Source of the DNA: Myxococcales bacterium
GTDB lineage: Bacteria; Myxococcota_A; Polyangia; Polyangiales; Polyangiaceae
Reading direction: 5' to 3'
DNA: 64,000 nucleotides
NCBI GenBank assembly: GCA_016720545.1
Contig: JADKKK010000003.1
Location: 345,516 to 409,515, forward strand
Under the pieces are notes generated by a model. That model was not told where the DNA came from. It saw only the letters and a program-made list of their open reading frames with translations, and made no database searches. Every line of letters starts with the position of its first letter. Position 1 is the first letter of the stretch. Made by a program: the position numbers and the translations under genes. Shown here piece by piece: positions 4,847-27,374 of this stretch.

Positions 4847-7043
4847 TCAGTCGGACGGTTCTTGCGGCGTCGCGTCGTCTTCGGCACCTTGCCCTCGGCG
4901 GAGAACGCTGCGCAGTGGGCATCTGCCGGAAGCGGCTCTGGCCGGGCCGCGACCTCCGCGACGCGGACCACCTCTCCGGTGCTCTTGGAAGCGGTACTGC
5001 GAGCGGAACGCCGGCGCGCCCGCCTTTGGCCGACCCCTGGCCAGCGCCCGTCGCTCTGGAGGGCCCACGACCCGGCCGTGTCCTGGCTCGAGATCGAGCA
5101 TGTCCGCGCGGAGCTTCGCGCGCAGGGTGGCCCTCGATGGGGATCATCACCTCGACCCGCCGGTGAGGTTTCGCGGCATCCAGTCGGCGCTCGAGAGATA
5201 GGACCTCCTCTTTTCCGCCGTTGAAGCGGAAACACGCGACCGTGCTCAGGTACCGATCGACGATGGCGCGCCACCTCTGATGTTTTCGCTCACGTTCGGG
5301 ACACCGGGTCGCAGGCAGCAGATACCGCGAATGAGCAAGGTGATCTGCGCCTGCCTGGGAGGCGCAGTAGAGGGGCCTCGATCACGTCTTCGTCGACGAG
5401 CGAGTTCATCTTGGCCACGATGCGCGCCGGCTTCCCGTGGCGAGCCTGCTCGGCCTCCCGCGCGATGAGGCCCAGCACCCCCTCGTGGAGGCCGAGGGCG
5501 CGACGATGAGCGGGTTCCACGCGCCGGGCGCTGTAGCCGGTGAGCAGGTTGAAGAGCGACGACGCGTCTTCCCCGATGCTGGTGCGGCACGTGAGGAGCA
5601 GAAACGTCGGTGTAGTGCCTCGCGGTCCCCGGGTTGTAGGTGCCAGTCGACAGGTGCACGTACCGCCGCAGTCCGGCGCGCGCCGGACGATGAGCAGGCA
5701 CTTCGCGTGGGTCTTGAGGCCCATGAGGCCATGACCACGTACACGCCCGCTCTGCTCGAGGGTGCGGGCCCACTGGATGTTGGACTCTTCGTCGAAGCGG
5801 GCCTTCGAGCTCGACGATGGCGGTGACCTGCTTGCCCGACTCCGCGGCCCGCGCGAGCGCCTTGACGATGGAGAGTCGCCGCCGGCGCAGTAGAGGTCTG
5901 CTTGATGCCAACACGTCAGGGTCTTCGGCCGCGCGGCTGACGAGTTCGACGATCGGATCGAACGACTCGTAGGGGTGGTGAAGCAGGATGTCGCCGTCAC
6001 GGATGGCAGCGAAGATGTCCTCCGCGTCGCGCAGCCAGGGCACGGCAAGCGGCACGTCCGGCTCATCCCGCAGGTTGCGCCGCTCCTCGCGCGCGAACAG
6101 CGCGAGGGGATCGCTCACGTTCAGGACCGCCGTCGTGCGGTAGACGTCGCGCACGGGTCGAGCTTCAGGGCCTTCACCAGCTTGGAGAGCGACGCCTCGG
6201 TGTACTCTCGGACACCTCCAGCCTGACGGCGTTGCCGCGCTCGCGGCGGCGGGGCTCTCCTGCTGAATCGTCTGGAGGAGATCTTCCGCCTCCTCCTCGT
6301 CGATCTCGATGTCGAAGTTGCGTGTCACGCGGAACGCGTAGACCCCCTTCAGCCGCACCCCTGGGAAGATCATGTCGACGTGCCGCGCGACGATGTCCTC
6401 GAGCAGCACGAACGCGTGCGGCGCGACGACGCCGCGGCGCTCGGGACCAGGCCCACCATCATGAGGCGAGCAACATCGTGGGCACTTGCACGACGCCGAA
6501 GTTCACGTCGCCCGAGCCGTCGCGCGAGAACATGACGCCGAGGTTCAGGCTCTTGTTGCGCACGTGAGGAACGGGTGCCCCGGGTCGATCGCGATGGGCG
6601 TGAGGACCGGGAAGATCTCGCTGTGGAACCGCTCGTCGAGGCGGGCGAGCGCGTCCTCGGGGAGCTCCGCGGGCTTCAGCCACGCGTAGCCTTGCTCGGC
6701 CAGGGCGGGCAGGAGGTGGTGCTTCAGCACCTCGTCCTGGTGGAGCATCATCTCGTGCACTCGCTCGGAGATGCGGGTGATCTGTCGGCCGCACGCTCAT
6801 GCCGTCGGGGCGATCTCGCCGACCACGCCGGTGAGCTGCTGCTTAGGCCGGCCACCCGGACCATGAAAGAACTCGTCGAGGTTCGGGTGACGATCGCGTG
6901 GATTTCAGGCGCTCGAGGAGCGGCACGGTCTCAGTCTCGGCCTCGGCCAGCACGCGCGCGTTGAACTCGAGCCAGGACGCTCGCGGTTCCAGATAGAGGT
7001 GCGGGGCGCGCAGGTCGTCGGCCTCGCGGCTCGCCGGTGGCAT
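4847..7043 (-). pseudogene. ppk1: Polyphosphate kinase 1, at least 5 frameshifts. 3' end approximate.
   Basis: Start MPPASREADDLRAPHLYLEPRASWLEFNARVLAEAETETVPLLERLK (ATG revcomp 7041-7043). N-domain FHSEIFPVLTPIAIDPGHPF. Catalytic ...KTHAKCLLIVRR, YVHLSTGTYNP.TAR.YTD, FNLLTGYS, KMNSLVDE. C-terminus IVDRYL..FNGGKEEV...RRVEVMIPIE...LDLE. Confidence 0.85.
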
Positions 7044-7555
7044 CGACGCGGAGGTCGGTGCGGTCCGGCGGGCGACGTGGTGGAGAGCGGCGCCGGCTCG
7101 ATGGGATCCATGCGTGGTCCGTTCTGCAAGAACGCTTTCGGAACACCAACTTGCGCGCAACCTAGCCCGACCTGCGTCAGGGTCACGGGAGGCGACGACC
7201 CGGGGGCCGACGGCTGGTCGAAGCGCGGCGCGCTCCGACAGCGCGGTCGTTCCGCAAGAAGACCGCGTGCCCTGAGTTCGCCGTCTCCGTGTAGCTCGCG
7301 AGACCCACGCCGCGCTCTCGGGGCGGTGCTCCCCCCGAAATCGCGGACCGACTCCTGCCAGGTGATGAGCGGCGCTTTGTCGTGAAACGAACGCGGCCGG
7401 CGGCTTCGCGCGGAGCGCGCGAGGGAAGTCGCGCTCGTGCTCGTCGCGGAGGGCCACGATCTGGCGGGCCTGCACGGGGTTGGGGTGGAGGCCGACGGGA
7501 TCCGGCAGGTTGCCGCCCGCGAGCGCGGCGTCCGGGTTAGGTCGTAGGCGTAAAT

Positions 7556-8755
7556 TTAGGGCGTCGCGCTGAGTCGCTGGGCGAGGAAGAGGACGTAGGG
7601 GGGTCCATGCCGTAGGTCTGGACGCGCTCGTCCGGTTGGGTCGTGAGGCGCAGGTACAGAGGCGGCCTGACGGAGCTCCCACGGGAAGAAGTCGCTCGTC
7701 TGGAAGTACACGAGGTAGTCGTGCGACGTGCGCTCGATGGGGTCCCGGGCCTTCGTGAGGAGCCAGAGGCCCTGCACGTACGGCGAAATCGGCATCAACG
7801 TGGCGACCCGCAGCAGAGCGCGGCGCGCCGCAACGATGGGCAGGAGGCGATCGGGACGCCGCCGGGGCGCGGAAGGTGCGCTCGGCGTACCAGCAGACGA
7901 GCAGCACCCACTGGAGGCTCACCCCGCGCTCACCGGGTGGAAGTGGTAGGGAACCCTTTGCGCTGCGCGAGCATTTGCTCGCGAGGCCACTAGCGGGGGG
8001 CGAGCGCGATGGCGAGCGCGGCGCGGCAGCGTGCCCGTCGCGATGAGGCTCACGCCATCACCGCGCTCGTGGCGACCGCCGCCGCGGCGGGTGGAGAAGC
8101 CATCGAGGCCGAGGATCTCGTAGGGGGTGCGCGGCCAGATGAACCGGTACATGAGCGGCACGTCGACGAGGTAGGTGCGGAAGAACACCACCAGGTCCCC
8201 GAGGACCGCGAGGTAGAGCAACTGCGTGGCCGCGCCGAGCGCCGCGCCGACCGCGAAGGCGAAGAGCCGTCGCTTGCGGGGAGTGGGCACGTCGTCCACG
8301 AGGAGGGTCGCGATCTGAACGACCGTGAACAGGGCGTACGTGGGACGCCGAACCACAAGATGAGCGAGCGCGCCCGCCCACACGAGCGCAGCGCGCCCAG
8401 GGAACCAGGCCCCCTCCCCCGCGCGGCTGATGGCGGCGTCGGACTCGCCGTTCCGCATGCGGTCTTGGGCGGCGAGCGGGAGGCCGAGGAGGTCAGCGGG
8501 AACCAGTCGCGAAGCTCTCTCGCTGGGCCGTCCCAAAAATGTAGAGGAGATACTGCCCGCACTCAGCACCACCCAGGCGGCCAGCGCCCAGCCGGACCGG
8601 GAGGCGATCTCGCGGACCCACCGGGCGGCAGGCCCTGCCCGGAAGGTTCGGCCTCGCCCGCCGCCCGATCCAGGGATGCACGCGCCCACGAACGCGAAGG
8701 CGACGCCGCTCTCGAGATCGAGGACATGGAAGACGTGCTCGTCGGCGCCTCCCAA
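7556..8755 (-). pseudogene. Polytopic membrane protein, possible GT87/DUF2029-like glycosyltransferase; frameshifted across 7919/7922
   Basis: Multiple TM segments (WALAAWVVLSAGSISSTFLG, ALFTVVQIATLLV, LFAFAVGAALGAATQLLYLAVLGDLVVFF). Continues after a frame break as SLQWVLLVCWYAERTF...MPISPYVQGLWLLTKARDPIERTSHDYLVYFQTSDFFPWE. The family assignment is a guess. Confidence 0.4.
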
Positions 8756-10261: not shown

Positions 10262-11245
10262 GTGGCCCGCCTCCGCGTCGCCTTCGTCGGGCTGCCGCTC
10301 GCGGCGCTCCTGCTCGCCGCGGACGGCCACGACGTGGTGTACGCGGGCATTTGCCGGGATCGCGCGCCGGGCACCCGCCGGCTTCGGGCGCGACTCGGCC
10401 GGGGCCGCGTGTTCGTGAAGCCAAGCCTCACCGCCCACGCCGACCGCGTGCGGGCCCTCGCGCCCGACGTCGTGGTGAGCTGGTTCTGGACTCGCAAGGT
10501 GCCGGCCTCGTTCCGGGAGGCCGCCCGCCTCGCGGCGTTCGGCGTGCACCCGTCGCTCCTGCCTCGCCATCGCGGCGGAGACCCGTATTTCGCAGCCATC
10601 GATGCCGGGGACACGGTGACCGCCGTCACCGCCCTGCTCCTCGTAGACGCCGACGACACGGGGCACGTTCTCGGGCGGCGCGCGCTCACGTTCGACCCGT
10701 CGTGGAGCGCGTGGCGGCTGGCGAAGCGCCTCGATCGCCCCTCGCTCTCGCTGCTCCGGGAGGTGACCCGCGCCTACGCGGAGGGCCGGCCGCCCACGCC
10801 CGAGCCTCAAGACGAGGCGCTCGCGACCGAGGCAGGGCTGCTCTCGGAGGAAGACCTCGAGCTCGATCTGTCCATGACGGCGGAGCAGCTGGCCCGGCGC
10901 GTGCGGGCGGCGAGCCCGTACCCGGGCGCGTACCTGTTCGTGGGCGAGGCGCTCCTCACCATCGTCCGCGCCGAGGCGACGCCGGCCGCGCCGCACGGTC
11001 TTCAGCCCGGCGAGATCGCCGTGGATCCGGGGGGCGCGGCGATCGTCAAGACCCGCGATGGCGGCCTCCGTCTGCTCGCGGCGCGCCTCGCTGACGACGA
11101 CGACGACGCGCCGGACGAAGCGGGCGAGCGCGAGCCGGGGCCGGAGCGGAGCTGGATCGTGGCGAGATCGCCGATCTCGTGCGCGCGCTCGCGCGGGGAG
11201 GCGAGGAAAGACGGTTCCCTTGAACCGAAGGCTTACGTAGACTGA
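10262..11245 (+). CDS. Formyltransferase-family protein (methionyl-tRNA formyltransferase-like)
   Basis: GTG start 7 nt after the DHH stop. VARLRVAFVGLP, VVSWFWTRKVP and HPSLLPRHRGGDP match the Fmt HxSLLPxxRG motif. The Asp-rich C-terminal tail may hide a frameshift. Confidence 0.65.
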   Translation: MARLRVAFVGLPLAALLLAADGHDVVYAGICRDRAPGTRRLRARLGRGRVFVKPSLTAHADRVRALAPDVVVSWFWTRKVPASFREAARLAAFGVHPSLLPRHRGGDPYFAAIDAGDTVTAVTALLLVDADDTGHVLGRRALTFDPSWSAWRLAKRLDRPSLSLLREVTRAYAEGRPPTPEPQDEALATEAGLLSEEDLELDLSMTAEQLARRVRAASPYPGAYLFVGEALLTIVRAEATPAAPHGLQPGEIAVDPGGAAIVKTRDGGLRLLAARLADDDDDAPDEAGEREPGPERSWIVARSPISCARSRGEARKDGSLEPKAYVD

Positions 11246-11295
11246 GGCGCTCGACCATTCGCGCCCCCTCGGCCCCGCAAGAGAGCCATCGGGTA

Positions 11296-12723
11296 TTGAC
11301 TGCCCACGCTGGGATCAGAGCCTCAGGAGAGTGCCCCGTGTCCGACCCCGTGACCACTTCGCGTTCTGCCCGTGAATCCTTGGCTCGTGGCCTCGCCGCG
11401 CTCCAGGTCGACCCAAGCACTCCGCCCGCCATCCTCGAGATAGCAGAGCCCATCGCGCTCGCCATGGGCTCGCTCCACAAAATCGAGAGCTCGCAAGGGG
11501 CAGCGCTCGTGCCCAACGCGGAGACCGCGCTCGGTCACGTGCGGGCCGCGCTGTCGCAGCTCCAGGCGCAGACCTCCGGCCACCCCTCGGTGCCCAACGC
11601 CATGGAGGCGGTCGCGGCGTCGCTCGGCCTCGTGCACCAGCTCTCGAAGATGGTGACCGGGCCGTCGGTCGCGCCGGCCGCGCCGGCCGCGCCGGCCGCG
11701 CCCGTGCAAGTCGCCCCCGTCGCCCCCGCCGCCCCCACCGCCCCCGCCGCCCCCGCCGCCCCCGCCGCGGCAGCGGTCCCACGCCTCGGCACCCAGCCGC
11801 TCGCTCCGGCGATGGCCCCGCGGCCCGTGGCGGCCCCGCAAGCCCCGATGGCCCCGATGGCGCAAGCCCCGATGGCCCCGCAAGCCCCGATGGCCCCGCA
11901 AGCCCCGATGGCCCCGCAAGCCCCGATGGCCCCGCAAGCCCCGATGGCCCCGCAAGCCCCGACGGCCCCGCAAGCCCCGGCGTTCGCTCACCAGCCGGTG
12001 GCTCACCAGCCCGCTCCCCAGCAGGCCCCGCAGTTCGCCCCCCCGCCCGTGGCTCACCAGCCCGCTCCCCAGCAGGCCCCGCTGCAGGCGCCGCCGCAAG
12101 CGTTCGCGCCCCAGCCCATGGCCCAGCAGCCCGCGCCTCCGCAGGCGTTCGCGCCCCAGCCCGTCGCGGCCCCCCAGTTCGCTCCCGCGCAGCAGCCCGC
12201 TCCGCAGTTTGCCGCGCCTCCGCAGCAGCAGCCCACGCTGGCGCAGACCGTGGCGCTCGGCCAGCCCCAGCCCCAGGGTATGCAGCACACGCTCCCGGTA
12301 GCCCCCCAGGCCGCGCCGGACCCGTTCGCGGCGCCCCGCGGCTCCGCTCCCGCGCCTGCGCCCGCCGCCGCCGGAGGCCCAGGCCGGCCGGTGCCGGTGC
12401 TGAACGCCGACCTCGGCGCCCACAGCCCCACGAACTTCTACAAGGGGCTCTCGGGCAACGACGTCGTCGATCACGGCGGCCTGTTCGTTGCAACCTACAT
12501 GATCCCGAAGATCGGCAGCCCAGTGCGGCTGCACGTCTCGCTGCCCGGCGGGTATGAGTTCGACGCGGAGGCGATCGTGCGCTGGGCGCGGGACCAGGCC
12601 GGCAGCTCGGAGAGCGCGCTCCCCGGCTTCGGCGCGCAGTTCACGAACATCTCGCCGGAAGCGCGCCAGCTCATTTACCGCTACGTGCGCAACCGCGAGC
12701 CGCTCTTCCACGACGACCTGTAG
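11296..12723 (+). CDS. PilZ-domain protein with long Pro/Ala/Gln-rich low-complexity region, including 6 tandem PMAPQA hexapeptides
   Basis: Intact 475-aa ORF. C-terminal PilZ-like segment LHVSLPGGYEFDAEAIVRWARD...GFGAQFTNISPEARQLIYRYV. 18-bp DNA repeats at about 11848-11965. Confidence 0.7.
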   Translation: MTAHAGIRASGECPVSDPVTTSRSARESLARGLAALQVDPSTPPAILEIAEPIALAMGSLHKIESSQGAALVPNAETALGHVRAALSQLQAQTSGHPSVPNAMEAVAASLGLVHQLSKMVTGPSVAPAAPAAPAAPVQVAPVAPAAPTAPAAPAAPAAAAVPRLGTQPLAPAMAPRPVAAPQAPMAPMAQAPMAPQAPMAPQAPMAPQAPMAPQAPMAPQAPTAPQAPAFAHQPVAHQPAPQQAPQFAPPPVAHQPAPQQAPLQAPPQAFAPQPMAQQPAPPQAFAPQPVAAPQFAPAQQPAPQFAAPPQQQPTLAQTVALGQPQPQGMQHTLPVAPQAAPDPFAAPRGSAPAPAPAAAGGPGRPVPVLNADLGAHSPTNFYKGLSGNDVVDHGGLFVATYMIPKIGSPVRLHVSLPGGYEFDAEAIVRWARDQAGSSESALPGFGAQFTNISPEARQLIYRYVRNREPLFHDDL

Positions 12724-13954: not shown

Positions 13955-14926
13955 TTGCCGCTCGCTCCACTGCGCACGCGTTTTGCGCCCTCGCCCACGG
14001 GGGATCTGCACCTCGGCGGGCTCCTCTGCGCGCTCGTGTCGTTCGCGCTCGCCCGCGCCTCGGGCGGCGCCTTCGTGCTGCGGATGGAGGACCTCGACGC
14101 TCCCCGAACGGTGAAGGGCAGCGCCGCCCGCATCGAGGCCGATCTCGCGCGGCTGGGTCTGGCCTGGGACGAGCCCGCGGCGGACGGCGCCGGGCTCCAT
14201 GCGCCCTACACGCAATCGGCCCGAGGCCCGCTGTACGAGGCGGCGCTGACCACGCTGGGCGAGGTCACGTACCCGTGCGACTGCTCCCGCTCCGAGCTGC
14301 TCGCGGCGAGCGCTCCACACGCGGGCGAGGACCGCGTCTACCCCGGCACCTGTCGGGAAAAAGATCCCGCGCGCGTGATGCGACGGCCACCCGCGCAGCG
14401 GCTCCGCGTCCCGGAGGGCGCGGTCGTCGAGCTCGTCGACCTCGCCGCGGGAACGCTCACGCAAGACGTCGGGCGCGAGGTGGGCGATTTCGTGCTGCGG
14501 CGTGGAGACGGCGTCTTCTCCTACCAGCTCGCCTGTGCGCTCGACGACCACGCGATGGCGATCGATCTCGTCGTCCGCGGGCGCGATCTCCTGACCTCCA
14601 CGCCCCGGCAGCTCCTGCTCGGGCGGCTCCTCGGCGCGCGCGCGGCGCCGCGCACGCTCCACGTGCCGCTGCTGGTGAACGGCTCCGGCGAGCGGCTGGC
14701 GAAGCGCACCGGCGGCATCGCGGTCCGCGAGCTGCTCGCGCGCGGCGTGCCGATGGAGGCGCTGTTCGGCGTGCTCGCCCACGCGGCGCGCCTCGCGACG
14801 ACGCCCGGCCCGCTCACGCTCGACGAGGTCGTCTCCCGCGCGGCCGCTCGCCTGCCCGCGCTGCTCCGCGGGGAGGTGCCCCTACCGGAGCGCGCGACAG
14901 TGCCCGACGCGCTCCAGGGGTGCTGA
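13955..14926 (+). CDS. gluQ: Glutamyl-Q tRNA(Asp) synthetase (YadB)
   Basis: TTG start gives MPLAPLRTRFAPSPTGDLHLGG (class I HIGH-type motif). Also YPCDCSRSE, YPGTCR and LAKR (KMSK-like). The 568-aa listed ORF is a fusion with the antisense of the upstream gene. Confidence 0.8.
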   Translation: MPLAPLRTRFAPSPTGDLHLGGLLCALVSFALARASGGAFVLRMEDLDAPRTVKGSAARIEADLARLGLAWDEPAADGAGLHAPYTQSARGPLYEAALTTLGEVTYPCDCSRSELLAASAPHAGEDRVYPGTCREKDPARVMRRPPAQRLRVPEGAVVELVDLAAGTLTQDVGREVGDFVLRRGDGVFSYQLACALDDHAMAIDLVVRGRDLLTSTPRQLLLGRLLGARAAPRTLHVPLLVNGSGERLAKRTGGIAVRELLARGVPMEALFGVLAHAARLATTPGPLTLDEVVSRAAARLPALLRGEVPLPERATVPDALQGC

Positions 14927-14936
14927 GCGGGCCGGC

Positions 14937-15097
14937 CTAGAGCGCCGAACCGCTTGATGACCGAGGATTTTCGCCGAGTTGCGAGCCGTGCGAGGCGCGA
15001 CGACGAGTCCTACTGCTGCTAGGCGAGGAGGAGCAACGAAAGTACGGCGACGTAAATCGGCGAAAAGCCGACCGAATCAAGCGGTTCGGCGCTCTAG
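14937..15097. repeat. 160-bp palindromic MITE/REP-like element with 22-bp perfect terminal inverted repeats (CTAGAGCGCCGAACCGCTTGAT / ATCAAGCGGTTCGGCGCTCTAG). Lies between convergent gluQ and the kinase gene.
   Basis: Seen directly. Internal complementarity (TTTTCGCCGA / TCGGCGAAAA). A second copy of the right half is at 55470-55548. Confidence 0.7.
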
Positions 15098-15098
15098 G

Positions 15099-16337
15099 TC
15101 AGCGGAGCCCGAGCGCTACGCCGACGACCACGCTCCCGCCGACCACGATGATCCACGCGAGCGTCCAGCCGAGCGCCCGACGCGGCGGAGTGACGGGCCG
15201 CTTCGACACGGTCTGCGACACCCGCGACCGGCTCGGGCGCTCGCGATCGGCGTCGCCCGTGCGGCGGCTATTCGGGGGGCGCGGCGAGAGCGAGGGCTCG
15301 GTGGTGCTCGCTTCGGCGGCGAACGGACCGGCGCTCGACGGCGTCGGCCCCGTGCGCTTGGTCTCGGGCACCGGCTCCTCGGGCGCCGGAGCCGGCGGGG
15401 TCTCCGGCGGGAGCGCGGCGCGCTCGGGCACGTCGTCGGGCTCGTCGGGGAAGATCTCGGCGCGCTCGAGCGAGGCCCGCATGGCGCCGGCCGACGAGTA
15501 GCGGTTGTTCGGGTCCTTCGACAGCGCGCGGAGCACGATCGCGGTCACGGCGGGCGAGAGGCCAGGCACCTTCGCCGCGGGCGAGGGCGGCGGCTCGGTG
15601 AGGTGGGCCGTGAGCACGGCGAGCGGCGTCTCCCCGCCGAAGGGAAGGGCGCCGGTGAGCATTTCGTAGAGCATCACCCCGCACGCGTAGAGATCGCACC
15701 GGCCGTCGAGCTCGTCGCCTTGGGCTTGCTCCGGAGACATGTACTCCGGCGTGCCAAACACCATGTTGAGGGTGGTGAGGTTGGTCGTCCCGGTGCCGCT
15801 GCCGCCGTTGACGATCTTCGAGAGGCCGAAGTCGACGACGGTGGCCCGCTCGGCGGCGTCGACGAGCACGTTGTGCGGCTTCAGGTCGCGGTGGATCACC
15901 CCCTGTCCGTGAGCGCACTCGAGCGCCTCGAGCACCTGCTTGGCGATGGCCACTGCGCGCGCCTCCGGGAGCTTGCCGTCTGCGATGAGTCGGTCGAGCG
16001 GCCGGCCATCGATGCGGGGCAGCGCGAGGCAGAGGAGGGGCACGCCGCCGGCCGGGTTCTCGACCTCGCCGACCTCGAGGATGCGGCACACGTGCGGCCC
16101 TTCGAGGCGGCGCAGGATGGCGCCCTCGCGCATGAAACGCCCGCGGATCTGCACCTCGCTCGCGAGGTGAGGGTGCATGACCTTGAGCGCGACGGACTCG
16201 CCGCTCGCGGTATCGCGTGCAGAATACACGACGCCCGTGCCGCCTTCGCCAAGTACGCCTTCGACCTCGTACTTGCCGAGCACGACCGCGCCCCGCCGGA
16301 GGCGCTCTTCGCTGGTGGTGCTCGCCGGGCCGTCCAT
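15099..16337 (-). CDS. Ser/Thr protein kinase with C-terminal TM anchor
   Basis: GEGGTGVVY, VALKVM, HRDLKPHNVLV, DFGLS, GTPEYMSPE. C-terminal WTLAWIIVVGGSVVVGVALGL. Confidence 0.9.
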   Translation of the reverse strand: MDGPASTTSEERLRRGAVVLGKYEVEGVLGEGGTGVVYSARDTASGESVALKVMHPHLASEVQIRGRFMREGAILRRLEGPHVCRILEVGEVENPAGGVPLLCLALPRIDGRPLDRLIADGKLPEARAVAIAKQVLEALECAHGQGVIHRDLKPHNVLVDAAERATVVDFGLSKIVNGGSGTGTTNLTTLNMVFGTPEYMSPEQAQGDELDGRCDLYACGVMLYEMLTGALPFGGETPLAVLTAHLTEPPPSPAAKVPGLSPAVTAIVLRALSKDPNNRYSSAGAMRASLERAEIFPDEPDDVPERAALPPETPPAPAPEEPVPETKRTGPTPSSAGPFAAEASTTEPSLSPRPPNSRRTGDADRERPSRSRVSQTVSKRPVTPPRRALGWTLAWIIVVGGSVVVGVALGLR

Positions 16338-16501
16338 CGCCGCGGCAGGATACCCGACACGCGAGCGGGCGCGAGCCTGGCGCTCCGTGCGCCAACGGTG
16401 CGTTACCCCGCACTTCCTGCGCCGCCCTCGGAGGAGCCCCGGGGCGCCCTCTCAGGTATCCGCGGGCCGCCGCTTGTCACGCGCCTTGCTTGGGTTGGTT
16501 C

Positions 16502-17839
16502 ATGGGCGACCGCTCGGCTCGCGTGCTCCATCTCGCCGTCTTGGCCGTGGTCCTCGCGACTTCGCAGGCGGGGCGCGGAGCTCCCCCCACCGACGCGTGC
16601 TCGCTGCGCGGCGCCGCGGGCGCCCGGGAGAGCGCCTCGCCGCTCGCCTGGCCGCTCGCGGTGACCCCCGCCTTCGCCGAGCCGAGAGGCGGCGCCCCGA
16701 CGCCCGACGAGCTCGCCGGCGGGTGGACGGGCACGGCCTCAATCACCGCGGCGCGGAGCCCGATGAAGCCCGTGGAGAGCGCGATGGCGCCCCACCTCGG
16801 GGTCGCGAGGGACATCGAAGCGGAGGCGAGCGCGTCGAGCGCCGGGGCGACCTTTGCGTTCGGAGGAAAAGGAAGCGCGTGGAGCTGCCCCTTCACGCTG
16901 GCCCGCGGGACGCTCAGCTGCACGACGCAGGTCTACGGCTACCGCATGACGATGACCGGCGCGCTCACGCGGTCGGGCGGCACGCTCCGGGTGAGCGGCG
17001 CCTGGAGCGCCTCGCAGCCCATGCTCACGCTGCGCGGCTCGTGGAGCCTGGAGAAGCCCTCGAGCGACGTGGAGATCGAGCTGCTCCACCCCGCCGGCCG
17101 GAGCCCGAGGGTCTTCACGTCGGGCTGGCTCTTTGGCGCGCGCTGCGTTCGCGGGAAGGGCACGCCCCGCGAGGTCGACCTCACGGCGGAGGTCGAGTGG
17201 GGTGGCACCGCCACGTTCACGCCGCCGCGCGGGACGCCCGTCCGCCCGCGCTTCGCGACCACGGGCAAGAACAAGCTCACCCTCACCTGCGACGGCGCCA
17301 AGAAGACCTTCGTGATCGAGACGGTCGGCACCGCCCGCTTCGCGCGGATGGGTCACTTGGCCTCCGCCCCTGCTGACGCGCACGGCTGCGGGGCCTGCCC
17401 ACACCCCGCGGTGACGGGGCCGATCGTCCAGGGGAGCCCATCCGTGCTCATCGACGGCTTCCCTGCCGCGCGCGTCGGCGACTACGGAGTGCACGCCGCG
17501 TGCTGCGGCGCCAACACGTTCCGTGTCGCCGCCGGCAACGACCACGGCGTGCTGATCGACGGTCGCCCCGCGACGACGATGGGCGCGCGTACGGTGCACT
17601 GCGGCGGGACCGGGAAGATCATCGAGGGCGCTGCGGGCAACTACGAGCCGCCATCGTTCGCCGAGGAGGCCAGCGGCGGCTTCTTTGGGGTCCCGAGCCC
17701 CGCGCCAGCGCGCGCGCCGGCGACGAGGCCACGCGCCACGGCGTCGTCCACGACGTCGACCGCAGTCGAGCCGCCGGTGGCGGCCGACGTGAAGCTCGAC
17801 GCGCCGGCCCCCGAGGACCTCGCGGCGCAGCGAGCGTGA
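16502..17839 (+). CDS. Secreted protein with C-terminal PAAR-like domain
   Basis: Signal peptide MGDRSARVLHLAVLAVVLATSQA. C-terminal half has two PAAR-type repeats: GPIVQGSPSVLIDGFPAARVGDYGVHAACCG and DHGVLIDGRPATTMGARTVHCGGTGKIIEGAAGN. Confidence 0.65.
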   Translation: MGDRSARVLHLAVLAVVLATSQAGRGAPPTDACSLRGAAGARESASPLAWPLAVTPAFAEPRGGAPTPDELAGGWTGTASITAARSPMKPVESAMAPHLGVARDIEAEASASSAGATFAFGGKGSAWSCPFTLARGTLSCTTQVYGYRMTMTGALTRSGGTLRVSGAWSASQPMLTLRGSWSLEKPSSDVEIELLHPAGRSPRVFTSGWLFGARCVRGKGTPREVDLTAEVEWGGTATFTPPRGTPVRPRFATTGKNKLTLTCDGAKKTFVIETVGTARFARMGHLASAPADAHGCGACPHPAVTGPIVQGSPSVLIDGFPAARVGDYGVHAACCGANTFRVAAGNDHGVLIDGRPATTMGARTVHCGGTGKIIEGAAGNYEPPSFAEEASGGFFGVPSPAPARAPATRPRATASSTTSTAVEPPVAADVKLDAPAPEDLAAQRA

Positions 17840-18423
17840 CGCTGCGCACCGAGCCTGGTGCGACGCGGGTCGTCCGCAACACGCCCGACGGCGCGGCGAG
17901 CCCCGCCTCCGCCATCGCCGTCCTGCCATCGTCGGGAGTCACGAGACGCCCGGAGGGGACGATCCACCTGACGCGGGGCGCGATCGTGGTCACCACGTTG
18001 CCCCCGGCCAAGCAGCTCATCGAGACCGACGCGGGCACGGTGGAGCTCGGCTCGCAGGCGCGCGTCGCGCTAGTCGACGGCGCCGTGGACGTGGCGCTGC
18101 TGGCAGGGAACGCCACACTCCGACCGCGAAGTGGGCCCGAGCTCCGGCTCTCCGCGGGGCAGTCGGTCCGCTTCACAGCGAAGGGGGCGATGGCCCCGCC
18201 GGCGGCGATGTCGCCCACGGAGGTCGGCGACGCCGTGCGCGCCCTGGTCGACCCCAAGGCGGCCGCGGCGACGGCCGGCTCCGAGGAGGAGCTCCACCCG
18301 CTCCTGCGCGACCGGCGGCTGTGGATGGCCCTCGGCGCCGGGGTGGCGATCGCCGCAGCCGTCATGGCGGCGGTGGTGCTCGCCCTCGCGAGCAGGCGCA
18401 AGGGCGGACCCGCGGCCCGGTGA
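17836..18423 (+). CDS. FecR-like beta-sandwich protein with C-terminal TM helix; GTG start overlaps upstream stop
   Basis: LIETDAGTVELGSQARVALVDGAVDVALLAGNATLRPRSGPELRLSAGQSV resembles a FecR domain. C-terminal RLWMALGAGVAIAAAVMAAVVLALASRRKG. Confidence 0.5.
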   Translation: MTLRTEPGATRVVRNTPDGAASPASAIAVLPSSGVTRRPEGTIHLTRGAIVVTTLPPAKQLIETDAGTVELGSQARVALVDGAVDVALLAGNATLRPRSGPELRLSAGQSVRFTAKGAMAPPAAMSPTEVGDAVRALVDPKAAAATAGSEEELHPLLRDRRLWMALGAGVAIAAAVMAAVVLALASRRKGGPAAR

Positions 18424-18483
18424 GACCCGTGGTGATCGAGCGATGCAGGTTGACACCCGCGCTCAGACTGCAACCTTCTGCGG

Positions 18484-19897
18484 ATGCGCCTCCGCACGCC
18501 CGCTCTTCCGCCTCGCTTGCCACGCTTGCCACGCTTGCCACGCTTGCCACGCTTGCCACGCGCCCTCGGCGCGCTCGGCTTCGCGGCGGCCGTCACCTCC
18601 TCCGCGACCCTCGCCCGCGCCGCCACGCTGGAGGTAGGGCCGGGCAAGCAGTACGCGGAGCTGTCGGCCATCGCCCGCATCGTGAAGCCGGGCGACGTCG
18701 TGGAGGTGCAGGGCGACCACACCTACGCGCCCGTCGAGTTCAACGTGAACGCCACGCAGGCGGCGCCGATCACCATCCGCGGGGTCCGCGTGAACGGCAA
18801 GCGCCCGATCGTGAAGGGCGGCGAGAACACGGTGCTCTTGCACGGAAACTTCTACACTTTCGAGGGCTTCGAGGTCACGGGCGGCACCGGAATCTGCGTG
18901 GTCCACAGCGCCAACGGGGTAACCCTCCGCGACGACGTGATCCACGACTGCCCGCGCCACGGCATCCTCGGGACCGACAGCGAGGCCGGCTCGCTCCTGA
19001 TGGAGTACGTGGAGGTGTACGCGGCCGGCAGCGAGCGCGCCGGCGAGGCGCTGAAGCACCCGGTGTACATCGCGACCAACGAGAGGATGTACCCGAAGTC
19101 GGTCTTCCGCATGCAGCACTGCTACGTGCATGACGCGAACGGCGGCAACTCGGTCAAGTCGCGCGCCGAGCGCAACGAGATCTACGGCAACTGGCTCGAG
19201 GGCGCGCAGTACTACGAGCTCGAGCTGATCGGCCCCGACGACGACAGCGGCGACACGGTCACCGCCCCGCGCGAAGACGGGGACGTCGTGGGCAACGTGC
19301 TCCTCCAGACCAAGTCGACCTCGTACGTCGTGCGCGTCGGCGGCGACGGCACGGGCCGCACTGGCGGGCGCTACCGCTTCGTGAACAACACGTTCATCGT
19401 CGGCAGTCACGCGAACAACGCGGGCGCGATGCGGGCCTCGTACGCGCTCGACTCGCTCGAGCTCTACAACAACGTCTTCTCCAGGGCCTCCGGCCGGATG
19501 GACTACCTCGTCCGCGAGACCGATCTCACCTGGATCGCGGGCCGCCAAATCGCCGGCGCGAACAACTACATCACCCAGGGCTCGGGCAACATCCCCGCTA
19601 CCCTCACCGGGAACATCTTGGGCACCAACCCGGATTCGTGGACCTCGCGAAGAAGGACCTGCGCCTCGCCGCCCCCCCGCGCCGGGTACGCCCGAGCCGC
19701 CGCCCGGGGTGGTGCCCGGATTGCCGGGGCTGCCGGGGGCGAGCGACGACGGGGGACCCGGCAGCACGGCCACCACGAGCTCGGGATGCGGCTGCGGCGC
19801 GGTGGGCACTCCAACCCACTCGCTGCTCGCCGGGGCAAGCCTCGTCGCAGCGCTTGGACTGCTCAGCCGCGCGCGCGCGCGGCGACGCGGTCGCTGA
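18484..19897 (+). pseudogene. Right-handed parallel beta-helix (pectate-lyase-fold) surface protein with MYXO-CTERM sorting signal; frameshifted near the 3' end
   Basis: Signal ...ALGALGFAAAVTSSATLARA. Beta-helix repeats (NTVLLHGNFYTFEGFEVTGG, GICVVHSANGVTLRDDVIHDC, HCYVHDANGGNSV). Tail in another frame [45 protein letters not shown] is a MYXO-CTERM-like GCGC-TM-Arg cluster. Confidence 0.65.
18497..18541. repeat. Perfect 9-bp tandem repeat (CTTGCCACG) x5 at the extreme 5' end or start region of the beta-helix gene
   Basis: Seen directly. Encodes LPRLPRLPRLPRLPR in the gene frame. Confidence 0.9.
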
Positions 19898-22856: not shown

Positions 22857-25800
22857 TTCTTCTCCGACGGCGGCAACGAGCGGGCGCCAAGCATGGCGGT
22901 GAGCTCGCTCGGTCGATCCGCGCGACGACCAGCGGCGAGGGCGTGGTGTCGAAGAGCGCGGCCACCATCGCGCGCTGCGAGTAGAGCTTCCGCAGGCGCA
23001 TGTTCCGGATGGTCTCCATCACGCCGGTCGCGTAGTCGACGGCGCGCTGTCACGTGGCGGCCGCCTGGGGACCCGCGCGCTTCAGCGCGTCGGCGCACAA
23101 GGTGCGCACGTCGAGCCCGTACTCGCTGCCTTGGAGCGCCTCGACCGCGCCGAGGGCGGTGGTCGCGAGCAGGGTGGCCGAGTGCACCTCGCCCGCGTCG
23201 ACGCGGGCCGAGGCCTCGATCGCGAACGCGTAGAAATGATAGGCCACGAGCGCCTGCTTCTCGGCCATCCGCCGGGCCTCGATCGCGAGCTCGATGGCCT
23301 TCTGAGGCTCGCGGCGCGCCTGCGCGATCGCCGCGCCCACGACCAGCCCGTGCGCCCGCCACCCGCCTCTTCGAGAGCGCCGTTGTCGAGAGCGACCTCC
23401 GGCGCTCACGAGCAGCGTGTCGGTGCGACCGTCTTTGTCGGCGTAGCGCTCTGGGCATCGCGCGCGCTGGAGGTAGGCCGCCGCGCGTGGCACGTCGCCG
23501 AGGCGCGAGTAGGCGTGCCCGATGTTGGCGAGCGTCTTGGCGGCTGGAACCGGCCGCCCACGGAGAGGTCGATTTGGATCGACTCGAACGCGAGCGCGAT
23601 GGCGTCTTCGTAGCGACCTTGCACGGAACATGGCGTAGGCGAGCGCGTTTTTGGCCCGCGCCTCTTGGCGATGCGCGCCGCTCTTGCGGTAGATCGCGAT
23701 CGCCTGCACGTAGTCGTCCACGGCCTCGCGCACTCGCCCCACACGACGGAGCAGCACCCGCGAGAGCGCAGCGCGTCGGCGCGCAGCCGCGGCGGCACGT
23801 TGGCGTTCACGTCGGGGTTCGCGGCGGCGAGCGCGCGGTCGGCCGCCGCGAGCGCCGCCTGCGTCGCCGAGCTCGCGACAGCTCGCTCGTGAGCGACTCG
23901 GCCTCGATCTCCAGCTGAAGGAAGCCGGAGCCGCGGGCGATTTGGGCGGCCTTCCGGGCGATCGGCAGGCCGTGGGGCAGCCGCCCTTCGTCGAGATCGA
24001 AGCGGGCCGTACGGAGGAACGCGAGGCACACGCTTCGAGGCGTACCGACGTGGCGCGCGCACGCGCGCATGCCCTCGAGCTGCGCGACGCGATCGCGCTT
24101 GCGGCCGAGCATCCGGTAGATGCCCTCGAGCGCCTCGTGCGCGACGAGCCTTCGCGGGTCGTCGATGGTGAGCTGGAGGAGGGCGCGCTTGTAATAACGG
24201 ACGGCGAGCGGCGTCTGGTAGGTCGTGCGCGCCGCGGTGGCCGCCTCGATGTAGTAGTGCGCCGCGCGCTCGCCGTCGTCGCCGCGGGCAAAATGGCTGG
24301 CCACGATCGCCGCGGAGACACCCCTCGCGAGCGGGGTGCCGGTGAGGTGCTCGCCGAGCGCCTTGTGCATTCGGGCTCGCGCGGTGGCAGAGAGCGCTCC
24401 GTAGGCGACGTCGCGCGTGAGCGGGTGGCGGAAGTCGAGGTCGCTCCCGCGCCGATCGCGAACCCCCGCTCGCAGAGGCGGGCGGCGGGCTCGGTGGCCA
24501 CGCTCGGGACGGAGCTCCCCTCAGCGAGCAACCGCTCCAGGTCGGGGACGGCGAGCGGACCGCCCGCGATCGCGAGCCAGTCCACGATGCGCCGCTCACG
24601 AGGCGGGAGCTCCTCGATGCGGTCGGCGAGGAGCTGCTCGAGCGTCTGGGGGAGGAAGAACTCGCGCTCGCCCTCCTCGGCGCGGACCAGGGCATCCTCC
24701 CGGATCTCGAGGACGCCCCGCTCGAGGAGCGCGTCGACGAGCTCGAGCAAGAAGAACGGATTGCCCCCCACGCGCGGGAGCAGCTCGGCGCACACCTCGC
24801 GGACCCCCTCCTTCACGCCGATGCGTGTCTCGACGAGCCGCACCTGCTGGTCGCCCGAGAGGCCGTGCAGCTCGATGCGCACCTTGCCCTCGAGGAGGGG
24901 GGCGAGACGCTCGTCGGGTCGGGTCACGAGGACCACCAAAATAGGCAGTGGATCCGTGGATTTCAGCAGATCCGCGAGGACGTCGAGGCTCGGCTTGTCG
25001 GCCCACTGCAGGCCCTCGGCGACGAGCACGACGGGGCCATCGGCGGCGAACGCGCCGAGGAGGTTGCGCACGCTCGTGACGAGCAGGCGCTTCTGGTAAG
25101 CCGCGTCGTCGTTGTCGCCCTGTCCAGACGGGCGGTTCGTCACGAGCTCGGCGAGCCGCGCGACCATGGGGTTGTCCCCCTTCGCGCCGGGTCCGCCCGC
25201 GGGCCCGAGCACCTCGACGACCTCCGCGTAGCTCTCCTCGCCCGTGAGCGCGGCGGCCGATCGGACGAGCTCGGCGATCGTCGCGAACGGCACCTCCATC
25301 CGCACCGGCGAGCACTCGGCGCGCACGATCCGCGCGTTCGGCGGCAGCTCGGCGAGGAAGCTGTGGACGAGCGCGGTCTTGCCGATACCGAGCTCACCGA
25401 CGACGGCGCGCGCGCTCATCTTGTCGTGGCTCGTGGCGTTCATCGCCGCGTGGTACGCCGCGACCAGCTCGGCCTTCTCCGCGTCCCGCCCGACCAAATC
25501 GTGCGGCGACGCCCCGAGCCGATCGCGCTCCTCCCGCGAGGCTGCGCTCGAGCGTGTAGATGCGCATCGTCGGCGGAGGTTTGGGACGTCGGTGTCGCTC
25601 GGGAAGTCGAGGCTCGGCGCGTCGCCCCAGCGAAACTCCCGGCGCACGAGGCGGTAGAGCCCGCCCGCGACCCACGTGGTGTTCGGCGGGGTCTTCCGGC
25701 TGAGCGTGTCGGCCAGGTAGGTGACCGGATCGTGCAACGTGTACCGGACGAGGTTCCCGCTCGCGTCGCGGATGCCCGAGGCGATCCCGCGGACCAGCGT

Positions 25801-27203
25801 CATCGTGGCCGACACGGGCGCGGGGAGATCGTCCGCCAGCGCGGCGAGGGCCTCGTGGGTCTCCAAGGCCAGCCACGCGGAGTCGGAGGGGGCGCGCGCG
25901 TGCCGCGCGGTGAGGCCTACGACGGCGCGGGCCTGGAAGTCGGAGGTCCACTGCCACCGCGCACCGCGCTTGTAGGCCATATCGTCGAGCATCGGGCGGA
26001 GCCGCAGGATCGCCCGCGCGAGGCGCGCGCGTTCGCCTTCGGTGAGCACCTGCTGCGGGGCGAGCTCGAGCGTCACGAGCGCGATGTGCCGCACCTCGCG
26101 GTGCTCGCCGCCGCGCTTGTTGGGCCTCGACGACGCGGGCGCGCGATCGCTCGCGATCGCCACCGGCGCCGCGGGGTTCGTGAGCTCGGGCCCAGGCGCG
26201 GGGGACCCGCCGCGATCGCCGCGACGATCGCTCGGCCGCGGGAGGAACGCGTGGATCGTCGCCTCCAGGGGCCGCGCCGTCCACCAGCTCTTGGCGCGAC
26301 AGGAGCGCTCGACCGATGGCCGCCACGAGCTCCCTCCCCGTCGCGTAGCGGCCCTCGGGCCGCGGCGCGAGGAGCTTCATCACGATCTGCTCGAGCTCGG
26401 CGGGCAGATCCATCGCGAACGTGCTCGGCGGCTCGACGCGGCCCGTGCGGACCACCTCGAGGAGCGCCGTCCCGGTGGCGCTGCCGGCGGGACCGGCCGG
26501 AGAGGCACTCCCAGAGGATGACGCCGAGCGAGTAGAGATCGCTGCGGCGGTCGACCCGCTCCCCGCGGGCCTGCTCGGGCGACATGTACCCGTACTTGCC
26601 CTTGATGACCCCCTGCTCGTCCTGCAGGAAGCGCGCGCTCGCGATGCCAAAATCCGCAATTTTTACGCTGCCGTCGTAGGAGAGCAGCACGTTCTGGGGC
26701 GACACGTCGCGGTGAACGATCTCGAGCGACGCGCCGCCGTCGTCTTTCTTCTCGTGCGCGTAGTGGAGGCCCTTGGCCACCTCGGCGATGACGTAGGCGC
26801 TCACCCAGGGCGGCAGGCGCACGCCGGCCGCGCGGGCGGCCGCGACGATCATGCCGAAGTCCGGGCCCTCGACGTACTCCATCGCGAGGATGTGCCCCTC
26901 GGCCCCCTCGTTCGAGAAGTCGTAGACCTGCACCACGTTCGGGTGGTTCAGGCGGGTGGCGAGCTGCGCCTCGTCGATGAACATCGTGCGAAAGCGCCGC
27001 GACGCCCCGAACGAGGGCAGGATGCGCTTGACGACGACGATCTTCGAGGTGCCCTCGGCGCCGCTCTTGCGCGCCAGGAACACCTCGGCCATGCCGCCCG
27101 CGCCGAGGCGCCGAAGCACGTCGTACTGCGCCAACTTTTCGGGGAAAGATTCAGTCACGGCGTGCGCGGTGTCGATGGACGGGCTTGGCCCCGTAGCCCC
27201 CAC
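22853..27203 (-). pseudogene. Multidomain signalling protein: N-terminal Ser/Thr kinase, cyclase-like region, AAA/STAND ATPase (Walker A GELGIGKT), long TPR array. Multiple frameshifts. Could alternatively be two adjacent genes.
   Basis: Kinase: LGAGGMAEVF, VVVKRI, HRDVSPQNVLL, KIADFGIA, GYMSPEQ. AAA: LVGRDAEKAEL...GELGIGKTALVHSF. TPR-like helices through 23100. The C-terminus shifts frame to end ...ARIDRASELTAMLGARSLPPSEKK with an ATGA overlap onto patatin. Confidence 0.6.
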
Positions 27204-27374
27204 CCCGGGAAAGTGCTGTCACCAGCGCCGCCCAGTGTACCCGCGTTCACGAGGGCGGCGCTCAGGAAAACCACGCGCGGAGGGGCGACGCGAGGGCGAC
27301 GCAGGGGCGAGCCACGCGGCGATCGCCGCCCGCGACGGTTTCACGCTCGCCTCGGCTGGTGATGCAGGATATTT

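Follow-up and report, generated by a model that had tools for sequence, protein, structure and literature searches.

A predicted exported PAAR-FecR protein, apparently split in two by one missing base in a Polyangiaceae genome assembly

The PAAR-FecR locus described here occupies positions 16502-18423 of a 64,000-nucleotide stretch of DNA (hereafter the window, ~72% G+C) from contig JADKKK010000003.1 of a Myxococcales bacterium of the family Polyangiaceae (assembly GCA_016720545.1). A reading made from the letters and their translations (the sequence-only reading) had taken the locus for two translationally coupled genes, one for a PAAR protein with a signal peptide and a ~270-residue unknown domain, the other for a tail-anchored FecR-like partner, and had placed both in an envelope or contact-dependent module rather than in a classical type VI secretion system (T6SS). 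Our analysis points to a single gene interrupted by one missing nucleotide. On balance, we lean towards a product that would be exported and membrane-anchored and would not serve as the tip of an injection spike.

Results

The locus and the missing base

The locus is made up of two open reading frames (ORFs) and the site at which a base is missing:

16502-17839, + strand: ORF1, 445 amino acids
17836-18423, + strand: ORF2, 195 amino acids
17821..17822, + strand: missing-base site; window GAGGACCTC-GCGG, L009 GAGGACGTCCGCGG, L008 GAGGACGTGCGCGG

Both ORFs are present as the sequence-only reading had described them, with a GTGA stop/start overlap at 17836-17839. The G+C content at third codon positions (GC3) is 0.92 in both ORF1 and ORF2, indicating that both frames are coding, and its phase changes near 17800, in the ORF1/ORF2 region. 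Upstream of 16502, GC3 in the ORF1 frame drops to just 0.64, and for this reason the ATG at 16502 is favoured as the start. The NCBI annotation of the same assembly lists two coding sequences, MBL0194269.1 (272 amino acids, "PAAR domain-containing protein") and MBL0194270.1 (195 amino acids), and the JGI annotation calls the proteins of this family "Zn-binding protein involved in type VI secretion". The closest relatives of the locus are found in metagenome-assembled genomes (MAGs) of Polyangiaceae.

Six orthologues from other lineages (P0001, P0003, P0005, P0006, P0007 and P0079, the last at locus L010) carry ORF1 and ORF2 as one ORF of 638-757 amino acids, and are collinear in alignment with ORF1 and then ORF2. 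When P0001, P0003 and P0079 were compared with the window by tblastn, the match switched from frame 2 to frame 1 at 17821, and blastn against the two closest orthologous loci, L009 and L008, revealed exactly one 1-nucleotide gap in the window. The missing base shifts the frame by -1 and results in a false stop at 17837-17839 and the GTGA overlap. The repaired junction reads ...APAPEDL|RGAASVTLRTEPG against EDVRGTTSATLRTEPG in P0003, and the longer junction stretch of P0003, ...APPIEDVRGTTSATLRTEPG..., is matched by the repaired window reading. The orthologous sequence also continues in the ORF2 frame 5' of its GTG (RGAAS). ORF1 and ORF2 thus appear to be two halves of one gene with a product of ~640 amino acids, and the apparent "coupling" through GTGA would be a by-product of the frameshift, because the orthologues are contiguous and the gap at 17821/17822 is a single nucleotide. 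The proposal of two coupled genes gives way to this view, and the expected co-occurrence of the halves in other genomes takes an altered form: both halves do recur in the six orthologues, as one ORF and not as a gene pair. Programmed -1 frameshifting was considered and rejected, since there is no slippery heptamer at GAC-CTC-GCG and the orthologues are contiguous.

The flanks were compared with five further assemblies of this species (L093-L097; 99.2-99.7% identity to the window by blastn), which look short-read (SPAdes/MEGAHIT-style) from their contig names. Deletions of 1-2 nucleotides beside C/G runs occur in the window only, at ~19628, 19671, 20142, 20169, 20215 and 20262, where 2-3 other assemblies agree with one another, and by the same comparison a further 224 bp are missing from the window at ~19673. 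As a result, two genes are broken in the window: the beta-helix/MYXO-CTERM gene, whose intact copy in L094 (2075-3652) encodes 525 amino acids, and the lipoprotein-like gene that follows it, with 316 amino acids in the intact L094 copy (3743-4693). Homopolymer errors of long-read assemblies typically take this form, and the source MAG is error-prone and probably long-read. The gap at 17821 is of the same type as the errors at 19.6-20.3 kb, a C missing beside a C. Because of these window-only deletions of the same type elsewhere in the assembly, an artefact is favoured at 17821; the split is likely an assembly deletion error in a C/G run, or else a recent inactivating mutation. In an exact-pattern scan of JGI metagenomes, the junction had zero matches with or without the extra base, and ORF1 of this species occurs in no other assembly found.

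Two other genes of the window look similarly disturbed. The ppk1 (polyphosphate kinase) region at 5246-7919 (- strand) has merely fragmentary Pfam matches, and a Ser/Thr-kinase-AAA_16-TPR gene at 23053-27218 (- strand) has several GC3 phase changes and a kinase domain cut at profile position 196/263; both are probably further frameshifts of the window assembly.

Domain layout of the repaired protein

The repaired protein of 640 amino acids consists, in order, of a signal peptide, a disordered segment, an 8-stranded barrel, a beta-sandwich, a PAAR domain, a linker, a FecR domain, a short helix, a transmembrane (TM) helix and a basic tail:

16502..16573, + strand: signal-peptide-like N-terminus, residues 1-24, MGDRSAR / VLHLAVLAVVLA / TSQA|G
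16694..17059, + strand: 8-stranded up-and-down beta-barrel, avidin/calycin-like, residues 65-186
17069..17326, + strand: beta-sandwich directly before PAAR, family-specific, residues 190-275
17342..17629, + strand: PAAR domain, residues 281-376
17630..17821, + strand: Pro/Ala/Gly-rich disordered linker, residues 377-440 of the repaired protein
17836..18201, + strand: FecR-fold beta domain, membrane-proximal, ORF2 residues 1-122
18313..18399, + strand: C-terminal TM helix, ORF2 residues 160-188, helical in the AlphaFold2 (AF2) model, Kyte-Doolittle hydrophobicity over 19 residues (KD19) 2.54
18400..18423, + strand: short basic tail SRRKGGPAAR and stop codon, net charge +4 after the helix and 0 before it

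The N-terminus has charges in its n-region, then 17 uncharged residues in a row and SQA ahead of GRG; in the AF2 model, residues 7-21 are helical and those just after them disordered. The features of the signal peptide proposed for ORF1 are present and are common to all 12 relatives with the full architecture. A lipoprotein signal was rejected because no lipobox precedes the first Cys (PTDAC).

What had been called a ~270-residue unknown domain resolves into the barrel and the beta-sandwich. The strands of the sandwich are modelled at a predicted local distance difference test score (pLDDT) >90 by AF2; it has no Pfam match, and G199, S201, W209, W233, G235 and G244 are invariant in an alignment of 66 sequences (A2). 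Together, sandwich and PAAR domain form a conserved module (query residues ~190-375). The PAAR assignment was borne out at the Pfam gathering threshold (GA), as PAAR_motif (PF05488) matches residues 303-369 in two stretches with 52.3 bits against a GA of 27 (E 6.7e-14). This part of the protein adopts the conical beta fold of solved PAAR proteins, and the cone is complete. Eight residues (H294, C296, C299, H301, C334, C335, H366 and C367) are conserved in at least 90% of the 66 sequences; this His/Cys set near the apex could provide metal ligands or, in an oxidising periplasm, disulfides.

The linker, about 65 residues long and with pLDDT <50 for residues 388-445 in the AF2 model, varies in length and aligns poorly among the orthologues. 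The ORF2 model (pLDDT 83.7, 13 strands) was matched by Foldseek to 6ovk_R (PupR, E 3.1e-8) and 4m0n (BDI_1681, E 1.7e-7), with the next match at E 0.07, and the PupR match spans about half of its C-terminal cell-surface signalling domain (CCSSD; TMt 0.49). An exhaustive phmmer search with ORF2 among 1.84 billion representatives returned eight relatives only, seven of which are the same PAAR-linked protein and the eighth, P0081, a classical FecR anti-sigma factor (E 5.9e-4). The Pfam FecR profile (PF04773) scores 15.4 bits in ORF2 and 14.6 in L010, under the GA of 24, and in Bacteroidota homologues it exceeds the GA at the corresponding position, with 27-30 bits; a profile of the C-terminal domain gave only chance matches to PDB sequences. 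The FecR-like nature of the second half therefore holds by fold and by the match to P0081, but not by the Pfam profile of the window sequence itself. The C-terminal TM helix is kept in all relatives with the full architecture. It is, as had been proposed, a tail anchor for the FecR-like part, which would be not a separate protein but the membrane-proximal portion of the same exported polypeptide. The tail of ~10 residues in the window protein is replaced in P0005/P0077 (L002 gene 7285-9558) by one of 130-190 residues with tandem PSPSQPAYPQAQHRP-like repeats.

Predicted topology

Twelve proteins, seven myxobacterial and five from Bacteroidota, make up the full-architecture set. All 12 begin with a positively charged N-terminus and then an uncharged hydrophobic run of 11-23 residues, a length that points to a signal peptide rather than a TM helix, and the Bacteroidota members have textbook signal peptides. 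After the C-terminal helix the tail charge is +4 to +8 in all 12, against 0 to +2 before it. A Zn-ribbon follows the TM helix in the homologue at L032. From the positive-inside rule and standard Sec logic, we infer a type I protein of the inner membrane whose tail is cytoplasmic and whose barrel, sandwich, PAAR and FecR domains all lie in the periplasm.

The wider family and its distance from injection systems

The beta-sandwich+PAAR module was found in about 65 protein clusters and in about 39 species genomes, covering Bacillota, Dehalococcoidia, Actinomycetota, Armatimonadota, Bacteroidota, Ignavibacteria, Pirellulales and the archaeal Thermoplasmatota and Methanobacteriota. Nearly all members begin with a signal peptide, a Tat-like lipoprotein signal (MTEIDRRKFL...GC in Dehalococcoidia) or at least one TM segment. 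A minority (P0041, P0052, P0055 and several Actinomycetota) have another order, in which a signal peptide and an ectodomain precede a TM helix, an Arg cluster and the module. The family would thus be membrane-associated without lying uniformly outside. The window architecture is repeated in Bacteroidota, where the PAAR and FecR matches of L032, L035, L038 and L040 all exceed GA, and hhalign aligned the myxobacterial and Bacteroidota C-terminal domains in register over 94 columns (E 8.6e-4). By these profile comparisons, the whole architecture is conserved across Myxococcota and Bacteroidota.

None of the 50 main ORFs scanned in the 64-kb window is a T6SS, extracellular contractile injection system (eCIS) or phage-tail gene, in agreement with the sequence-only reading, which had noted no T6SS core genes there; none was found near the orthologue loci either, including L001, L002, L003, L005 and L006. 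Within the fetched flanks, vgrG occurs in 0 of 51 module loci against 11 of the 40 nearest stand-alone PAAR loci (p = 4.9e-5), and the latter are genuine T6SS clusters (ClpV-VgrG-PAAR, VgrG-DUF4123-PAAR, DUF2169). The window protein scores 35 bits with the NCBIfam equivalog for T6SS PAAR proteins (NF033420), whose cut-off is 124. Equivalog score, vgrG linkage and export signal would all set it apart from a functional spike tip. PADLOC gave no defence-system match.

Population variation

In all five same-species assemblies, the locus has suffered a deletion with an identical junction:

16414..17849: segment deleted in L093-L097, 1,436 bp, between CGCAC repeats at 16409-16413 and 17845-17849 (blastn)

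Lost with this segment are the promoter-proximal region, the whole of ORF1 and the junction; what is left is a FecR/TM remnant of 145 amino acids, annotated in several MAGs as a hypothetical protein. In the sister species, an in-frame TAG stands at codon 489 in L090 (6463-6465) and L091, and CAG (Gln) in L008, a 99.64%-identical MAG; the sister species is thus naturally polymorphic for a stop codon where the FecR domain begins. The orthologue in L009 carries another frameshift (~codon 297). Within the syntenic block (window 13955-19632 compared with L088 and L090), the PAAR-FecR gene is the most diverged, with 68-72% amino-acid identity against 78-87% for gluQ, 79-87% for the kinase and 91-94% for the beta-helix protein. 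The gene appears from these comparisons to be dispensable and often lost, a pattern that may be typical of surface or conflict-related genes.

Neighbouring genes

Synteny with the Ser/Thr kinase and beta-helix genes is limited to very close Polyangiaceae relatives, and the beta-helix gene is absent at the other orthologue loci. The intact L094 copy of the downstream beta-helix protein does end, by eye, in a MYXO-CTERM-like tail, as the sequence-only reading had described (the 3' part is garbled in the window). As evidence for a functional module, however, this neighbour falls away because of its absence from the other orthologue loci. In its signal-peptide region, at ~18509, there is a 9-nucleotide in-frame length polymorphism (LPRLPRLPR repeat): L093 and L095 have the 9 nucleotides, the window and L094 lack them. 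Another gene of the window, for a PilZ-domain protein at 11224-12720 (+ strand), has a Pro/Ala/Gln-rich low-complexity N-terminal region of ~350 amino acids with APQAPM-type repeats.

At family loci outside the window, a Trm112-like Zn-ribbon fused to a class I S-adenosylmethionine (SAM) methyltransferase directly adjoins PAAR genes of the DAHGCxxCPH subtype, often with a radical-SAM gene (B12-type or small) near the methyltransferase-PAAR pair. No Trm112-type methyltransferase homologue was found in the window. Of the 48 exported-module loci, 13 have the methyltransferase gene, with two myxobacterial orthologue loci and one archaeon in this group. The gene also stands in 13 of the 40 stand-alone PAAR loci, ClpV-VgrG-PAAR and VgrG-DUF4123-PAAR clusters among these. 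A second recurrent neighbour, a protein of 244 amino acids with an N-terminal TM segment and no Pfam match, lies directly upstream of the module gene in Dehalococcoidia, Actinomycetota and Syntrophomonas and may be a further operon member of the exported-PAAR gene. The coordinates of these genes are:

L002 6236-7288; L010 11665-12389; L003 8788-9678; L005 8888-9952: Trm112-SAM methyltransferase genes
L034 10567-11436; L066 10310-11374; L077 10314-11348; L058 10407-11492: Trm112-SAM methyltransferase genes
L003 7227-7961: 244-amino-acid TM protein, homologues in L012, L013, L014, L018, L019, L023, L024, L029 and L030

In Bacteroidota the neighbours vary by locus. Two Chitinophaga loci have a TPR+CHAT protein of 1,100 amino acids divergent from the PAAR-FecR gene (L040 6083-9505 and L041 6095-9409, both - strand), and L032 has an extracytoplasmic function (ECF) sigma gene (11836-12396) 150 bp after the PAAR-FecR gene; neither neighbour is kept elsewhere.

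Discussion

We mildly favour, overall, the reading of the locus as one gene for an exported, membrane-anchored PAAR-FecR protein that is not a spike tip. Sec would export the protein, and the C-terminal helix would anchor it in the inner membrane with its basic tail in the cytoplasm. The FecR domain would lie beside the membrane as a juxtamembrane stalk, comparable to that of cell-surface-signalling regulators, and the ~65-residue linker might let a rigid barrel-sandwich-PAAR head span the periplasm. The head could act as a tethered, non-enzymatic binding device for docking or sensing, in which the metal- or Cys-stabilised PAAR cone and its obligate beta-sandwich would serve as a protein-docking knob and the barrel as a pocket for a ligand or partner. 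T6SS and eCIS spikes are assembled in the cytoplasm, and a PAAR domain in the periplasm could therefore not cap a cytoplasmic VgrG spike. A signal peptide is characteristically absent from T6SS effectors with a periplasmic site of action (PMC7376260). On both grounds, this PAAR domain is unlikely to be a projectile tip, and with the PAAR domain behind a signal peptide and no T6SS genes nearby, an envelope role, as the sequence-only reading had suggested, is likelier than that of a classical T6SS tip; the other epithet it used, contact-dependent, finds no support.

Several observations weigh against this interpretation. The nearest stand-alone PAAR domains, 52-59% identical, belong to genuine T6SS spike tips, and the VgrG-binding surface may be intact. 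In this genome, the scan for T6SS and eCIS genes covered the 64-kb window. The signal peptide was judged from sequence rules, and cleavage-site motifs are poorly conserved among the myxobacterial orthologues. A TM helix and an Arg cluster precede the module in P0041, P0052 and P0055 and at the Actinomycetota loci L027, L028 and L037, an order that by the positive-inside rule would place the module in the cytoplasm, so that the family would not be uniformly extracytoplasmic. The documented indel errors cluster at 19.6-20.3 kb with none in 17845-19627, and the frameshift at 17821 might be real. The analysis turned up neither a binding partner nor a conserved neighbour nor an enzymatic domain, and the proposed function is drawn from domain architecture.

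The alternatives differ in which part of this evidence they stress. Two separate coupled proteins, a secreted PAAR protein and a tail-anchored FecR-like partner forming a two-component envelope module, would agree with the GTGA overlap, with the two coding sequences listed by NCBI and with the sister-species nonsense allele at codon 489, which also parts the two regions. This is highly improbable, since every intact orthologue is a single ORF, the split sites vary by lineage (codon ~441 in the window, 489 in L090, ~297 in L009), the ORF2 frame matches the orthologues upstream of its GTG and the slippery heptamer is absent; ORF2 alone would have no signal peptide, leaving its FecR domain on the wrong side of the membrane. 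A rather better case, yet still an unlikely one, can be made for a pseudogene decaying in this strain, with a real 1-nucleotide deletion in a locus heading to the loss seen in most sampled conspecifics. The identical deletion in five independent same-species assemblies, the TAG allele in two samples of the sister species, the separate frameshift in L009, the fastest evolution within the syntenic block (68-72% identity against 78-94% for the neighbours) and the absence of the species' ORF1 from other assemblies all fit such decay. What counts against it is that GC3 is 0.92 in both halves, the domains are entire and there are no additional stops; the missing base lies in a C/G run, as in the demonstrable assembly errors nearby, and only 23 nucleotides from the deletion breakpoint, where mixed-strain reads might upset polishing. 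Decay in this strain would be compatible with the role proposed above for an intact family member.

Two further alternatives concern function. Myxobacteria commonly carry T6SS, and the protein might be a specialised T6SS or eCIS PAAR effector that is made in the cytoplasm, whose ends insert into membranes, whose PAAR domain caps a VgrG encoded at a distance and whose FecR-TM part is cargo. Its complete cone, its 52-59% identity to stand-alone PAAR domains of ClpV-VgrG-PAAR and VgrG-DUF4123-PAAR clusters and the finding that ~38% of genomic PAAR genes lack any vgrG within a distance of 20 genes (PMC8651086) would suit such an effector. We regard this as improbable because the N-terminus has no prePAAR motif (AARxxDxxxH), no toxin domain was detected, and Eag/DUF1795, DUF4123 and DUF2169 adaptors and vgrG are absent from the 64 kb and the orthologue loci. 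In addition, the hydrophobic run has the length of a signal peptide (11-23 residues) with positive charges ahead of it, unlike the signal-peptide-free effectors that act in the periplasm (PMC7376260), and the module bears lipoprotein or Tat signals in lineages without T6SS, archaea among them. FecR-type signalling is distinctly unlikely as well. In such a scheme, the periplasmic head would bind a ligand or partner and thereby set off regulated proteolysis or a conformational change, relayed by the FecR domain and TM helix to a protein in the cytoplasm (for instance the divergent Ser/Thr kinase or an ECF sigma factor). The FecR fold does resemble PupR and BDI_1681, a membrane Ser/Thr kinase is encoded divergently both in the window and in close relatives, and L032 combines an ECF sigma gene 150 bp downstream with a cytoplasmic Zn-ribbon. 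Yet the cytoplasmic tail is ~10 residues here and is conserved neither in length nor in sequence, the anti-sigma N-terminal domain and the STN/DUF4974 domain are absent, and the kinase and sigma neighbours are not kept beyond close relatives.

Beyond the window, the exported, membrane-anchored PAAR-FecR protein might represent an injection-independent use of the PAAR domain as an envelope docking or sensing module in Myxococcota, Bacteroidota, Chloroflexota, Bacillota, Actinomycetota and archaea, with the FecR stalk and anchor in the first two and a Trm112-type SAM methyltransferase, often with a radical-SAM enzyme, as maturase or partner inside and outside T6SS clusters. We put this forward tentatively, as an idea more doubtful than likely. 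The literature knows PAAR as the sharpening tip of injection devices, and an exported family in organisms free of T6SS would mean a second role, in the envelope, and in that case an automatic "type VI secretion" label would be misleading for these genes. The maturation of this PAAR subtype can be approached through its recurrent methyltransferase/radical-SAM neighbour. The locus also illustrates that one missing base in an error-prone MAG can mimic a convincing "translationally coupled gene pair".

Comparison with known systems

We found no description of exported PAAR proteins, PAAR-FecR fusions or PAAR-methyltransferase pairs in the literature searched; papers on TagP and the 'sorting hat' had no relevance to exported PAAR proteins. 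The survey by Zhang et al. 2021 (mSystems, PMC8651086) reported many PAAR genes without nearby vgrG, T6SS or eCIS genes and considered that PAAR proteins of Gram-positive bacteria may belong to unknown systems. It treated all PAAR proteins as tips of injection devices, and the terms 'signal peptide' and 'transmembrane' are absent from its text. The survey describes neither the exported sandwich+PAAR module nor the FecR fusion nor the methyltransferase link.

The prePAAR/TMD effectors of the Tse6 and RhsA class (Ahmad et al. 2020, bioRxiv 10.1101/2020.10.28.356139) resemble the window protein in being multidomain, with a hydrophobic N-terminal segment before PAAR. They differ from it by an AARxxDxxxH motif, which ORF1 does not contain, by an Eag (DUF1795) gene, of which the window has none, and by a toxin domain; the window protein has instead a short signal-peptide-like run and then ~250 residues of beta domains before PAAR. 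An identity as a prePAAR effector was rejected, as the motif, chaperone gene and toxin are all absent.

FecR/PupR regulators (6OVK; BDI_1681, 4M0N) share the same juxtamembrane fold (Foldseek E 3e-8, root-mean-square deviation 3.3 A over 137 columns), and the window protein has weak but significant sequence similarity to the classical FecR P0081. The polarity is reversed, because the domain precedes the TM helix in the window protein and follows it in FecR. The window protein also differs in having neither the cytoplasmic anti-sigma domain nor the STN/DUF4974 subdomain, and an ECF sigma factor or TonB-dependent transducer is not a conserved neighbour, with none in the window and an ECF sigma gene only near L032.

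The canonical PAAR tips (V. cholerae VCA0105, 4JIV; E. coli c1882, 4JIW; SalCis10, 9RCE) have in common with the window protein the PF05488 domain and the His/Cys positions. In contrast to them, the PAAR domain here is internal (residues 281-376 of ~640), preceded by a signal peptide and two beta domains and followed by a FecR domain and a membrane anchor, and it is predicted to be periplasmic, whereas spike tips are assembled in the cytoplasm.

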